Of a stretch of DNA of 64,000 bases, positions 59,168-63,955 are shown piece after piece (positions within the stretch are counted from its first letter, which is position 1; each line of letters starts with the position of its first letter). This DNA comes from an uncultured Candidatus Saccharimonas sp. (GTDB lineage: Bacteria; Patescibacteriota; Saccharimonadia; Saccharimonadales; AWTP1-31), in contig CALRBE010000001.1 of assembly GCA_943354005.1 (NCBI GenBank), forward strand, positions 64,147 through 128,146. Reading direction: 5' to 3'. The notes beneath the pieces were generated by a model that was given only the letters and a program-made list of their open reading frames with translations, was not told the DNA's origin and did no database searches. Made by a program: the position numbers and the translations under genes.

Positions 59168-59175
59168 GACTATAA

Positions 59176-59291
59176 TTCGGCACCGTGCTATTTTCCCAGG
59201 GCTTGATGACCCAAGTATTGTAACCGCTGCAAGGCTTAACTTCTGTGTTCGGTATGGGAACAGGTGTCTCCCTCGCGCCATGGGCACCGAC
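59176..59291 (-). rRNA. rrf: 5S ribosomal RNA
   Basis: The reverse complement contains the universal CCCAUACCGAACACAGAAGUUAAGC block. The terminal helix UCGGUGCC/GGUGCCGA includes two G-U pairs. Ends are accurate to about 3 nt. Confidence 0.9.
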
Positions 59292-59732
59292 TATCGAAAA
59301 CTACGTCTATGTAGTTTTCGCATGTCGGTGTCCATACGAGTGTTTATATATAAGTTATCTAAGACAAACTGTGCTATCAATACTGATATGCACCAAAAAC
59401 TAGCCAATTGTCTATTCCAGATAAAGTGTGCAAGCACACAATATCTGGAGTCATAAAAAGTCAATGCACCTATTAGTACGCTTCGGCTCAATACGTTGCC
59501 GCACTTTCACCTTGCGCCTATCAACCTGATCGTCTTTCAGGGGTGTCATAGGGAAATCTAATCTTGAGGTCAGTTTCGCGCTTAATATGCTTTCAGCGCT
59601 TATCTATTCCGCACTTAGCTACCCAACAATGCTCTTGGTAGAACAATTGGTACACCAGCGGTGCGTCCACTCCGGTCCTCTCGTACTAGGAGCAGATCCT
59701 CTCAAATTTCCTGACGTCCACAGCGGATATAA

Positions 59733-59803
<71 letters not shown>

Positions 59804-59817
59804 AAGGTGCTCCCCCT

Positions 59818-59852
<35 letters not shown>

Positions 59853-60433
59853 AGCGCCGTCTATGTGAACTATTGGGCGCTATAAGCCTGTTATCCCCGG
59901 CGTAACTTTTATCCGATAGCGCTGTCGATACCACTCTCATGTACGAATGTACGGACAGCGGAAAACTTACTCCCACTTTCGTGCCTGATTGGCTTGTAGG
60001 CCTCACAGTCAAGCTGGCTTATGCGTATGCACTATCGATTCGATTTCCATCCGAATCTAGCCAACCTTTGAACGCCTCCGCTACTCTTTAGGAGGCAACC
60101 GCCCCAGTTAAACTACCCACCAGACACGGTCCCGGAACCAGTACACACTCACGAGTAAAAACTCATGAACATATAATGGTCCCGGTAAGAATAAAACTAC
60201 AACAAGGGTGGTATTTCACTGATGACTCCACACTAGCTAGCGCTAGAGCTTCAAAGTCTCCCACCTATCCTACACATGTTGCAGCTCGATCCAATGTCAA
60301 GCTGTAGTAAAGCTGCACGGGGTCTTTTCGTCCTGCTGCGGACAGACGGCATCTTTACCGTCAATGCACTTTCACCGAGCTCTTCGTTGAGACAGTACCC
60401 ATATCATTACTCCATTCGTGCGGGTCAGAACTT

Positions 60434-61133
60434 CATTTTAGTTAGCTGTTCGTTTCCAAACAGATCAGACTATCTTTTCATCTCGCCAAAATTTTTAGGA
60501 GGTCTTCTTGTGTATTGCGTCGTGTTCCAGATTCATTCATTAGATAACTCTTCTGAATAATCTGCTCAAGATAATCATGATTTAGGTGTTTTGACTGATG
60601 AATCAGTTCACACACTTCAGTGAAAATCTTAAAATCACGCGCTTTACTGGTTCGTAATGGATATTTCTTAAAATGCGGGATAATCCTTCTCTCTAAATCG
60701 CCTATCGAACGTACCTCATATCGGTACATCTGATCGCGTTTACTGAAACGAATCGCACCACATCCGAAATAGGTATGAATATCTTTCAATACCTGAAGGC
60801 TGCGTTTGTTTTGAGCTATCGAAAAACTGGGTCGAACTTCTATTCCTGTTTTAAGTTTCGCTCGCCGGTTAAAACTAACCGAAAAACAACCTTCTCCATC
60901 TGCAAATCCTGTTATATACCAAGAAAACTCCGTGAATTCCTTTTTGGGACGAGAGCCAACGTATTGTACATTTTGTTTCATATGTACCTCTCCTTTCGGA
61001 TCAGTCGTTACGGCTTCCATTCATAAGAATGATTGCCACGGGATTGTCTTAATATCTTGTTAGATATCGTAGATTTCCCCGTTATTAGTTGGTTTACTCT
61101 TAACAAATCGCTTTGTTAATCAGGCAATTCTTT
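60434..61133 (-). mobile_element. group I intron in 23S rRNA (inserted after the E. coli U1951 equivalent)
   Basis: Removing 60434-61133 restores GUCAGGU|AAGUUCUGACCCGCACGAAUGG (E. coli GUCGGGUAAGUUCCGACCUGCACGAAUGG). The 5' exon ends in U. Intron GCCUG (61121-61125) can pair with exon CAGGU to form P1 with the U-G wobble. The intron ends in G (60434). Confidence 0.9.
60478..60981 (-). CDS. LAGLIDADG homing endonuclease (single-motif, intron-encoded)
   Basis: 167 aa from MKQNVQY at 60981, preceded by a strong SD AAAGGAGAGG; the track ORF starts at 61020. LAGLIDADG motif WYITGFADGEGCF. I-CreI-like size. Confidence 0.9.
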   Translation of the reverse strand: MKQNVQYVGSRPKKEFTEFSWYITGFADGEGCFSVSFNRRAKLKTGIEVRPSFSIAQNKRSLQVLKDIHTYFGCGAIRFSKRDQMYRYEVRSIGDLERRIIPHFKKYPLRTSKARDFKIFTEVCELIHQSKHLNHDYLEQIIQKSYLMNESGTRRNTQEDLLKILAR

Positions 61134-62702
61134 ACCTGACAAGGAATTTCGCTACCTTAGGACGGTTATAGTTACCGCCGCCGTTCACCGGGGCTTCAGT
61201 TCGCACCGTGAAGCGCTCCCCTTAACCTTCCGGCACTGGGCAGGAGTCAGCCCCTATACATCCACTTTCGTGTTAGCAGAGACCTGTGTTTTTGGTAAAC
61301 AGTTGCATGGGTTCTTTAGCTGCGGCCCCGCCACATTATCTACCACGATAACGGGCTTGCTGGGGTCAGCTTTCTTTTCTGATATGAAATATCGTATTCT
61401 CAAATTGCTCGTTTATACAGGCTCAATTAAGAAGTTAATAACTTAATTGAACTACTGTTTGTTTCCTGAAAAGAAAACTGGCAAGCCACTTGTCATAAAC
61501 AAAGTGGCGGGGCAGACCTTATCCCGAAGTTACGGTCGCTGTATTGCCGAGTTCCTTAACGAAGAATCACTCGTACGCCTTGGTCTACTCGACCTGAGCA
61601 CCTGTGTCGGTTTGCGGTACGGATAACTATGTACATAAGTTTGAAAGCTTTTCTGGTCAGCACTCTCGGAGGAATCGGCCCTAATGGGCCTTTCATTCGT
61701 AGTTGTTACGCTACTTAGACGGATATAACCATGAACCCGCTCCTCCTAACATGCCGCGCACTTCAAACAATACAAAGCTAGTACGGGAATATTAACCCGT
61801 TGTCCATCGCCTACGCTACGCGCCTCGGCTTAGGACCGACTAACCCTGGGACGATTATCGTTGCCCAGGAAACCTTGCTCTTTCGGCGGGCAGGATTCTC
61901 ACCTGCCTTATGGTTACTCATTCCAACATTCTCACTTGATAACGCTCCACCGAACCTCGCAGTTCGACTTCAACGCAGATATCAACGCTCCTCTACCGCT
62001 CATATAAATACAAGCTCGCAGCTTCGGTAATACACTTTAGCCCCGTTACATTTTCCGCGCAAGATCTCTTGACTAGTGAGCTGTTACGCACTCTTTAAAT
62101 GAATGGCTGCTTCTAAGCCAACATCCTAGTTGTCCAAGAAATCTCACCTCGTTTCCCACTGAGTGTATATTTAGGGACCTTAGCTGGCGATCTGGGCTGT
62201 TTCCCTTTTGAGCACGGAGCTTAGCCCCCGTGTTCTAACTGCCGTAGTTCCGCATATGGTATTCGTAGTTTGTCAAGGGTGGGTAACCTTGCGGCCCCCA
62301 GTCCAAAACAGAGCTCTACCCCCATATGTTACCGTACGACGCTAGCCCTAAAGCTATTTCGAGGAGAACCAGCTATCTCCAGGTTCGATTGGCATTTCAC
62401 CGCTAACCACAGGTCATCCGGGCATGTTGCAATATGCTACGGTTCGGTCCTCCACGCAGTTTTACCTGCGCTTCAACCTGCCCATGGTTAGGTCACCTGG
62501 TTTCGGGTCTAATCGCTAGTACTCGGTCGGCCTATTCAGCCTCGCTTTCACTACGCCTCCATCAAATGACTTAGGCTTGCACTAGCAATTAACTCGTTGG
62601 ATCGTTCTACAAAAAGCACGCAGTCACCGGACAAGCCGGCTCCTACTCCTTGTACGCACACAATTTCAGGTTCTATTTCACTCCCCTTCCGGGGTTCTTT
62701 TT

Positions 62703-62733
<31 letters not shown>

Positions 62734-63605
62734 ATCGTAAGATATATTTAGCCTTGGAGGGTGGTCCCCCCAGATTCAGTCAGAGTTTCACGTGTTCCGA
62801 CCTACTCGACAACGTATGAGACAAAACCTTAAGTTTTGCTATTCGCAGAACACAAGGTTCTGCCTCATAACTTACAAATATAAGGTTTGCAACGCTTAAC
62901 ATACCGGGCTATCACCGTCTTTGGCGCACCTTTCCAGGTGCTTCTGCTCGCATTGCAAATTTCTTACCTTATGTACGCTAATGGTAGCGCGTACCCCCAC
63001 TACAGATAACTGATAAATCAGTGATCTGTACTGGTTTTTTGTAATGTCACAACCCCCTATACACATTCGTCTACCAACTTATCCATTAGGCAATAAATTA
63101 CCAGATGGAAGTCTATAAGGTTTGGGCTCTTCCGGTTTCGCTCGCCACTACTTCCGGAATCGTTGTTTACTTTCTCTTCCTCGGGGTACTAAGATGTTTC
63201 AGTTCCCCCGGTTACCGCTCTCCTGGCCTATATATTCAGCCAAGCGCAGATAGACATTACTCTACCTAGGTTTCCCCATTCGGAAATCTTCGGTTCATAG
63301 CTTGTTAGCAGCTCCCCGAAGCTTATCGCAGCTTTCTACGTCCTTCATCGGTATCTTACGTCAAGGCATCCTTTGTGTGCGCTTGAGTAACTTTTTATGC
63401 ACTGACAATTGACTAGTTATTGGTAAACACCAATTACTATTGTGATACAAAACGTATCACATGCCGTTTGTCTTAAATTTACTTATTTCTTCAACTAAAT
63501 TGTTAAGTTACGAACTCAAAGGAATCCACCGATTTATTCCCACTTCCTTGAGTTTACACTGATGACTTTTTCGGGCCACGTGTCTAAACTCAAAGATACC
63601 AACAC

Positions 63606-63788: not shown

Positions 63789-63865
63789 TGGTGGAGCAAC
63801 GGGGACTCGAACCCCGGACCCCCTGCTTGCAAAGCAGGTGCTCTAGCCAACTGAGCTATTGCCCC
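63789..63865 (-). tRNA. tRNA-Ala (UGC), CCA encoded
   Basis: The reverse complement folds as a cloverleaf. Acceptor GGGGCAA/UUGCUCC has the G3-U70 pair. Anticodon loop is UUUGCAA and the T-loop is GGUUCGAGUCC. Confidence 0.95.
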
Positions 63866-63878
63866 ATATAAAAGTTCT

Positions 63879-63955
63879 TGGTGGGCGATGAGGGACTCGA
63901 ACCTCCGACCTCGTCATTATCAGTGACGCGCTCTAACCAGCTGAGCTAATCGCCC
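63879..63955 (-). tRNA. tRNA-Ile (GAU), CCA encoded
   Basis: Reverse complement: GGGCGAUUAGCUCAGCUGGUUAGAGCGCGUCACUGAUAAUGACGAGGUCGGAGGUUCGAGUCCCUCAUCGCCCACCA. Anticodon GAU, discriminator A73. Confidence 0.95.

Follow-up and report, generated by a model that had tools for sequence, protein, structure and literature searches.

A putatively mobile group I intron with a LAGLIDADG endonuclease gene in the 23S rRNA gene of a Candidatus Saccharibacteria genome

What is the block of about 700 nucleotides (nt) that interrupts the 23S rRNA gene of a Candidatus Saccharibacteria genome, and can this gene still give a continuous rRNA? We studied the question in a 64,000-nt stretch of contig CALRBE010000001.1 (the window), which comes from an uncultured Candidatus Saccharimonas sp. 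Its rRNA operon is at the right end of the window, on the minus strand. The 23S gene extends over 3946 nt, against 2925 positions in the RF02541 model, because it contains the intron described here and several short expansions. We interpret the block at 60434-61133 as a mobile group I intron of the IA type, inserted after the equivalent of E. coli U1951 in the single rRNA operon of this genome. Our probability for this reading is about 0.88. The genome (G000; 752 kb in 10 contigs, 98.5% complete) has the intron region in single copy. Judging from the titles of the closest loci, the organism belongs to Candidatus Saccharibacteria, within the Candidate Phyla Radiation (CPR). A first-pass annotation, made from the sequence alone, had described rRNA introns as rare in bacteria and recurrent in CPR lineages.

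The cmscan alignment of the 23S gene places the block after ...CUUGUCAGGUAA and resumes with UCUGACCCGCACGAAUGG. Read on the minus strand, the 5' exon ends in ...GTCAGGT at 61134. The insert runs from 61133 to 60434, 700 nt in total, and terminates in ...AAAATG. The 3' exon begins with AAGTTCTGACC at 60433, which is AAGUUCUGACC as RNA. An AA repeat at the junction allows three equivalent cuts, so the boundary is ambiguous by 2 nt. The cut chosen in the first-pass annotation is the only one of the three that puts U at position -1 and closes the intron with G.

The exon base U61134 aligns to the final T of GGGT, just before AAGTTCC, in the E. coli gene. This is nt 1950 of the 2903-nt annotated copy, which we take to be 1951 in conventional E. 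coli numbering, counting from the H69 loop and its usual landmark numbers. On this alignment, the insertion appears directly after the U1951 equivalent, in the loop of the GUCAGGUAAGUUCUGAC hairpin. The site proposed earlier is thus recovered, and its name, L1951, agrees with the table in PMC1995217. H69 is uninterrupted in the window's 23S gene according to the cmscan alignment. The intron and its two junctions are also spanned by contigs of 915 and 913 nt, taken from two other public DNA runs. These contigs are continuous over 60247-61161 and 60249-61161, with 0 and 8 differences, respectively.

Related genomes show the site with and without the insert. A 200-nt probe from the 5' exon found the matching part of the 23S gene in 12 of 41 related genomes, the window's own included. 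The remaining 29 assemblies are without assembled rRNA of that part and are uninformative on the intron. In eight genomes (G003, G011, G018, G024, G027, G030, G033, and G039), the empty site GTCAGGTAAGTTCTGACC is uninterrupted, with the consensus GTC[A/G]GGTAAGTTC[T/C]GACC. The insert is present at the identical base in three: 700 nt in the window's genome and in G001, of the same genus, and 708 nt in G035, which belongs to another family. The site of the last genome, G019, is cut by a contig end. Together with the cmscan alignment, the eight empty sites bear out the earlier claim that deleting exactly these 700 nt restores the conserved 23S sequence. Separately, contig C2 of G024 stops at 125526 (...GAAATTCCTTGTC), a few bases before L1951, and contig C3 of the same genome (118626-118683) carries the uninterrupted site. 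A mixed population, with and without the intron, could be the cause of this break.

Does the insert have the structure of a group I intron? The first-pass annotation had named this class and proposed an RF00028 search and a P1-P10 drawing as checks. The RF00028 match spans the whole model (1-253), with 26.6 bits and an E-value of 1.7e-4 in a 1-kb search. For the comparison, relatives of the encoded protein were taken from a one-genome-per-species scan of one collection; 511 were confirmed and the best 80 were kept. Both L1951 flanks are recognized by a strict pattern in 39 of these 80 loci. The other 41 comprise 40 with at least one L1951 flank, carrying variant exon letters, and one (L043) with downstream 23S words only. 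We aligned the window intron with the 39 strict-flank introns (n = 40). A hand-drawn P1-P10 structure, including the P3/P7 pseudoknot, was projected on this alignment. In the controls, the 3' partners were slid by 1-3 columns or the alignment was shuffled.

Standard pairs occupy 85.3% of the 3028 cells, against 35.3-42.1% with the slid partners. Double-sided changes are present in 53 of the 78 pairs. On each of five measures, the observed values were reached by 0 of 500 shuffles. The core P3-P8 can therefore be folded, and covariation extends over P1-P9 (Table 1). The elements ACGACU and AUAGUC are invariant across the 40 introns.

The splice sites are equally constrained. In the window, GCCUG at 61125-61121 pairs with the exon sequence CAGGU and leaves a U·G at the splice site. 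All 40 introns have this U·G, and all 40 end in G. So, the earlier description of an exon-final U, a P1 wobble with GCCUG, and a terminal G applies both to the window and to its relatives. The exon base at -4 varies by host and can be A, G or U. We counted 81 loci (the 80 plus the window), with a readable 5' junction in 61. In every one of these 61 junctions the -4 base is complementary to its partner in the guide (A-U 25, G-C 24, U-A 12).

Sequence comparison thus indicates a group I core, made of P3-P4-P6 and P7-P3-P8 with the P3/P7 pseudoknot. Subgroup IA is marked by P7.1 and P7.2, the two hairpins that separate P7 from the 3' strand of P3, and by their presence the intron would be of the IA type. 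Both hairpins belong to the peripheral features that define group I intron classes (PMC3984707). Two other identities were discarded. A short intervening sequence of the RNase III type is ruled out by the ribozyme core, and a group II intron had no match in the Rfam scans.

Table 1. Coordinates and support of the intron, its host gene, and the encoded protein. Percentages are paired cells and fractions are pairs changed on both sides in the alignment of 40 introns.
Feature	Position	Strand	Support
Two tRNA genes	63792..63955	-	
23S rRNA gene, host gene of the intron	59452..63397	-	RF02541, 2466.6 bits, model 1-2925
5S rRNA gene	59175..59291	-	
Group I intron at L1951, 700 nt; first base A 61133, terminal (omega) G 60434	60434..61133	-	cmscan insert, 8 empty sites, RF00028, covariation
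P1 exon strand UCAGGU; 5' splice-site U61134 pairs with G61125	61134..61139	-	93.3%; one pair GC:23/AU:17
P1 internal guide sequence GCCUGA	61120..61125	-	pairing and covariation
P10 intron strand GAAUU, with 3' exon AGUUC 60428-60432	61126..61130	-	hand pairing; weakly supported
P2 hairpin, 8 bp, GCGA (GNRA) loop	61100..61119	-	94.2%; 8/8
P3 5' strand	61086..61092	-	92.1%; 4/7
P3 3' strand, inside codons 7-9 of the reading frame	60956..60963	-	hand drawing, covariation
P4-P5-P5a domain: P4 61077-61082 with 61038-61043; P5/P5a 61047-61073	61038..61082	-	P4 95.8%, 4/6; P5/P5a 74.4%, 9/10
P6/P6a hairpin	61012..61037	-	P6 98.3%, 1/3; P6a 54%
P7 5' strand GACUG, pseudoknotted with 60468-60472	61002..61006	-	99.0%; 0/5, four pairs invariant
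P7 3' strand UAGUC, within the conserved ...GAUAGUCUGAUC element	60468..60472	-	alignment, RF00028, covariation
P7.1 hairpin UCC GAAA GGA	60991..61000	-	89.2%; 2/3
P7.2 hairpin GUACAU...AUGUAC; start codon in loop	60966..60987	-	86.6%; 6/6
P8 5' strand	60947..60954	-	85.5%; 6/7
P8 3' strand, last codons of the reading frame	60481..60487	-	hand drawing, covariation
P9 hairpin, 7 bp, GAAA loop	60446..60463	-	78.4%; 7/7
Homing-endonuclease gene, 167 aa, single LAGLIDADG_1 domain, stop UGA in J8/7	60478..60981	-	PF00961 E 6.4e-29
LAGLIDADG motif ITGFADGEGCF, residues 23-33	60883..60915	-	conservation in 42 homologues

The second component of the element is the open reading frame (ORF) inside the intron. 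It corresponds to the 167-amino-acid (aa) single-motif LAGLIDADG protein of the first-pass annotation. PF00961 (LAGLIDADG_1) matches it with 101.3 bits, over a cut-off of 23.1, and covers all profile positions (1-102 of 102). Residues G25, D28, G29, E30, and G31 (G-x-x-D-G-E-G) are invariant in 42 homologues. E30 is presumably the metal-binding catalytic acid. We also estimated the selection pressure as the ratio of replacement to silent substitution rates (dN/dS). For six close ORFs, all 15 pairwise values fall within 0.09-0.20. These comparisons indicate that the ORF is intact, as annotated, and under purifying selection. A homologous ORF in a Peribacteria-labelled metagenome-assembled genome (MAG; L034:1201-1692) has one in-frame stop, a sign of either gene decay or a peculiarity of coding.

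The AlphaFold model of the protein has a predicted local distance difference test score (pLDDT) of 89.9. Residues 1-14 are disordered in it. The rest follows the order alpha-beta-beta-alpha-beta-beta-alpha, with helices at 14-30, 59-72, and 93-106, and strands at 31-39, 47-57, 76-80, and 85-90. The top match among solved folds is I-TnaI (5gkk), with a Foldseek E-value of 3.7e-14, template-modelling (TM) scores of 0.77/0.87, and 35% identity. I-Vdi141I comes next, and then the halves of I-OnuI/I-LtrI family proteins. A two-copy prediction scored 0.74, against 0.30 for the best of three controls. The runs agree on at least 97% of contacts, with a partner pLDDT of at least 85 and a symmetric interface at residues 17-30, the LAGLIDADG helix. 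Among proteins solved as one-chain pairs, 20 of 30 reach the mark used for a homodimer; among those solved as single chains, 1 of 23 does. The prediction is thus a homodimer joined by the LAGLIDADG helix; solved LAGLIDADG dimers exist, so the pass may reflect these relatives and shows likeness rather than proof.

The putative target has a form that would agree with such an enzyme. Because it encodes an rRNA hairpin, the empty site GTCAGGTAAGTTCTGAC has the form of an inverted repeat, with GTCAG...CTGAC flanking a 7-bp centre. A partly symmetric site of this kind would suit a homodimer. The archaeal enzyme I-DmoI cuts the homologous hairpin of the archaeal 23S gene. In the literature searched, with subscription journals outside its scope, we found no biochemical description of an L1951-site enzyme. 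The first-pass annotation proposed a new endonuclease specificity. It is better put as an uncharacterised specificity, within that literature, of a large existing family, in view of the 511 relatives confirmed in one collection.

From the fold, the conserved splice sites, and the protein, we infer the following cycle. The transcribed intron would fold into the P1-P10 ribozyme, and the guide GCCUGA would pair with the exon sequence UCAGGU. This pairing would place the U·G wobble at the 5' splice site, where an external guanosine would attack. The terminal G (60434) would dock in the P7 site, and the exons would be ligated with the help of P10, giving a continuous 23S rRNA. The 167-aa protein, acting as a homodimer, would cleave this 23S site in copies that lack the intron. 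Repair from the intron-bearing copy would then copy the intron into the cut site.

The ribozyme and the ORF are interlocked. P8 encloses nearly the whole ORF, which spans the P7.2 loop, the 3' strand of P3, and P8 to J8/7. Its stop codon UGA is in J8/7, immediately before the invariant AUAGUC of P7. The first ~17 codons overlie P7.2, P3 and P8, consistent with the predicted disorder of this region. ORFs extending into core helices were noted earlier for cyanobacterial rRNA introns (PMC1995217).

The start codon deserves attention. In most family members the ATG lies in the 5' part of the P8 insert, and the window has ACG there (T17). The AUG in the P7.2 loop is the sole in-frame start before T17, located 5 nt after GGAGAGG. 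This Shine-Dalgarno-like sequence (60987-60993) consists of the 3' strand of P7.1 and the junction bases after it. It is conserved, even among introns whose ORF begins further downstream. The first-pass annotation described a strong Shine-Dalgarno sequence belonging to the ORF itself. The sequence, AAAGGAGAGG, does sit 5 nt ahead of the ATG. Nevertheless, its conservation is family-wide, and it is a ribozyme element first. A further upstream ATG at 61020 (180-aa frame) was rejected as the start; it sits in P6a and has no Shine-Dalgarno sequence.

A more speculative scenario can be drawn from this arrangement, and we hold it to be improbable. A Saccharibacteria clade might have lost the usual start (ATG to ACG) and moved it into P7.1/P7.2. 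Folding of the core and translation would then exclude each other, as an RNA switch, with the enzyme tuned to a target with A at -4 and co-evolving with the guide. If this is true, only intron RNA that is unfolded or already excised would serve as template for the enzyme, and the helices P7.2, P3, and P8, not the protein, would set the first ~17 codons.

How is the element distributed? All the best 80 loci are in the same 23S region, and 79 have at least one recognizable L1951 flank. Their labels include Saccharibacteria, many CPR phyla, and non-CPR MAGs (Thiomargarita, Saprospiraceae, Acidimicrobiia, and Gemmatimonadota). Some of these labels come from very short contigs, where mis-binning is possible. 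Such a distribution points to L1951 as a homing site in wide use. The protein tree was a quick build of 81 sequences with several long branches. We used it only for the non-monophyly of Saccharibacteria, not to identify donors. The window pairs with L025 (support 96) within a group of Saccharibacteria-labelled loci. On the starred branches, the Saccharibacteria label requires at least 4 changes (8 by parsimony). By this tree, the Saccharibacteria-labelled enzymes do not form one group. Among the related genomes, the patchy presence of the intron, three with and eight without, would fit either gain by homing or repeated loss.

Some individual loci are worth recording. A 3.3-kb contig labelled "Gammaproteobacteria" (L029) has a 700-nt L1951 intron, an enzyme 74% identical to that of the window, and exons of the Saccharibacteria type, GUCAGGU. 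A mis-binned CPR contig is more likely here than a transfer. Contig C8 of G035 has two further LAGLIDADG ORFs (L006 and L007, at 112112-112489 and 119163-119630; 38% and 25% identity). They are ~5.3 kb upstream and ~0.9 kb downstream of its L1951 intron, and the rRNA operon of this genome probably has several introns. In G033, where L1951 is empty, a distantly related LAGLIDADG ORF follows ~0.8 kb later in the 23S gene (L005; contig C1, 5466-5816; 25% identity, E 2.1e-6). It suggests an intron at another 23S site. Three more 23S fragments in G001 (L020, L023, and L024, on contigs C53, C14, and C66) are 74-78% identical to the probe. Two of them, L020 and L023, reach the site and have E. coli-type exons, GUCGGGU. 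This suggests foreign rRNA contigs in the G001 bin.

We looked for splicing in public reads. Parts of the stretch are held by 21 public runs, six of them recorded as RNA, and two RNA and two DNA runs were compared across the whole gene. All four consist of assembled contigs, and their depths are therefore no measure of exon relative to intron. In the RNA run X15, one contig joins 60431 to 61132 and skips 700 nt, with a depth of 63.1 and 20 letters on its shorter side. This joint could derive from an intron-less relative and is not counted for or against splicing. The two DNA runs compared have no joint skipping the 700 nt. Other joints (60331 to 61284; 61303 to 61511 or 61600; 61622 to 62071 or 62079) come from organisms without the expansion segments of this lineage. 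Altogether, the compared reads are weak evidence, and they neither show nor refute splicing in this organism.

Several observations weigh against a mobile, self-splicing intron. Intron pieces are found in both RNA libraries, 243 nt at depth 6.6 in X15 and 222 nt at depth 2.1 in X16. The X15 depth is comparable to that of long zero-difference exon contigs (6.9-14.8). The reads give no sign of depletion of the intron from RNA; DNA carry-over is a possible source of the intron pieces. The RF00028 score is below the gathering score of 50, a shortfall to which the 504-nt ORF within P8 and the insert P7.1/P7.2 contribute; the proposed Infernal check gave a full-length match of sub-threshold strength. 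The window's own sequence was the basis of the drawing, and the comparison with slid partners is consequently biased toward it; the compensatory changes are independent of this origin. P10 is 72.5% paired, with zero pairs changed on both sides. P6a, where lengths are variable, is just 54% paired. With ACG at T17, translation depends on the upstream AUG in the P7.2 loop. Finally, with one rRNA operon per genome and 12 of 41 assemblies informative, present mobility is indistinguishable from old vertical inheritance with losses.

These points feed alternative explanations of different weight. The insert might not be spliced at all. It would then persist in mature 23S rRNA, which a title in the reference list of PMC11270868 reports for the Simkania L1931 intron, or be excised by RNases without ligation, leaving a fragmented 23S, as with short intervening sequences. 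Splicing has been inferred here rather than directly observed, the intron pieces in RNA reach depths like those of exon contigs, and the same 23S gene bears other short non-intron insertions. However, the 53 compensatory pairs, the invariant P7, and the U·G and terminal G of all 40 introns would not be maintained without splicing, and the guide tracks the exon changes at every readable junction. The H69-H71 region is conserved, and 700 extra bases would hardly be tolerated there. CPR rRNA insertions are removed from transcripts, according to the introduction of PMC11270868, which cites Brown et al. An unspliced insert is, in our judgement, very improbable. Still less credible, to the point of being nearly negligible, is an assembly or binning artefact in which the intron of another organism was chimerically joined to this 23S gene. 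Metagenome bins often mis-assemble rRNA regions, more than two thirds of the related assemblies (29 of 41) have no such 23S part, and the G024 assembly breaks at this very site. Against this, contigs of the two other DNA runs cover the junctions continuously, the same 700-nt intron recurs, identically placed, in G001 of the same genus, and the guide matches the organism's own exon variant, with A at -4.

It is also conceivable, though unlikely, that the intron splices and its protein is no longer a working homing endonuclease. The protein would be a maturase or decaying, and the intron would be inherited only vertically in the lineage. A maturase role is established for some LAGLIDADG proteins. 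At codon 17, ACG has replaced the start codon typical of the family, and the L034 homologue with a stop inside its ORF indicates that decay occurs in the family. The closest relatives (L025-L028 and L030) are all Saccharibacteria-labelled and cluster in the tree, which fits vertical descent in that clade. On the other hand, the window's ORF is intact, with an in-frame AUG 5 nt past GGAGAGG, and the motif with E30 is invariant. The low dN/dS also speaks for a functional protein, although purifying selection fits a maturase too. Moreover, the intron occurs patchily, in 3 of the 11 genomes in which the site can be read, and the Saccharibacteria-labelled proteins need at least 4 label changes on the starred branches. 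We retain the homing intron as the best explanation, with a putatively active endonuclease and a mobility that may persist at present.

The same 23S gene has other insertions, all on the minus strand. The segment 61337-61500 is an AT-rich insertion of 164 nt, opposite 3 positions of the bacterial model (model 1763/1764). In the read runs, it is skipped by contigs from other organisms (joints 61303 to 61511 or 61600). It is probably the short non-intron type of rRNA insertion reported for Saccharibacteria. Domain I has short expansions at ~63069-63112 (~44 nt), 62968-63037 (~70 nt), and 62787-62856 (70 nt). They correspond to model positions ~282, 312, and 424, and the last one has 70 nt against 7 in the model.

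The type of element is already known, and the site is catalogued from Coxiella and, as "1952", in a CPR survey. In Coxiella burnetii, the L1951 intron measures 720 nt and has a 157-aa LAGLIDADG ORF (Haugen et al. 2007, PMC1995217). Compared by this table entry, the window has the same site in a bacterial 23S gene, a similar length (700 nt), and also a single-motif ORF, of 167 aa. The host differs: Coxiella is a gammaproteobacterial intracellular pathogen, and its 23S gene has a second intron at L1917, absent in the window. The Coxiella L1951 intron is reportedly self-splicing and of subgroup IA3.

At the protein level, I-TnaI is like the window protein in its single domain and size class (170 aa), with a phmmer E-value of 1.7e-26. 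Judging from its name and from the Thermotoga entries in PMC1995217, we take it to come from the Thermotoga 23S L1931 intron. Its insertion site is different from L1951, and so its DNA target must differ. The strongest sequence matches in the PDB are I-OnuI, I-LtrI, and I-SmaMI, each half of which aligns to the whole window protein (E 5.6e-43 to 1e-31). These are fused two-domain monomers of ~300 aa from fungal mitochondria, with asymmetric sites; in contrast, the window protein has a single domain and must pair with itself.

The systematic CPR survey (Tsurumaki et al. 2024, PMC11270868) found that 82% of the CPR 23S genes carry insertions, with 45% of these 23S insertions classified as group I introns. 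LAGLIDADG_1 ORFs are concentrated at 1917, 1931, 1952, 2593, 2604, and 2657. The "1952" insertions described there resemble the window intron in gene, site class, approximate size, likeness to group I in Rfam, single-domain LAGLIDADG_1 ORF, and CPR host. For this site, the passages of PMC11270868 consulted present neither a secondary structure nor an enzyme; the window intron has a structure backed by covariation. The enzyme tested in that work, I-ShaI, belongs to another site, 23IS7. Candidatus Saccharibacteria is an exception in the survey, since 64 of its 66 rRNA insertions are short, without intron or endonuclease gene.

For annotation, the intron explains a "23S" of 3.9 kb, a gene that rRNA-based tools will mis-handle. 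As no biochemical description of them was found in the literature searched, the L1951-site enzymes could supply meganucleases for highly conserved bacterial rDNA. The window intron is a well-resolved example of a class that is catalogued and little dissected, the endonuclease-bearing group I introns of CPR 23S genes. Its host belongs to Saccharibacteria, a phylum in which the single systematic survey found hardly any such introns.

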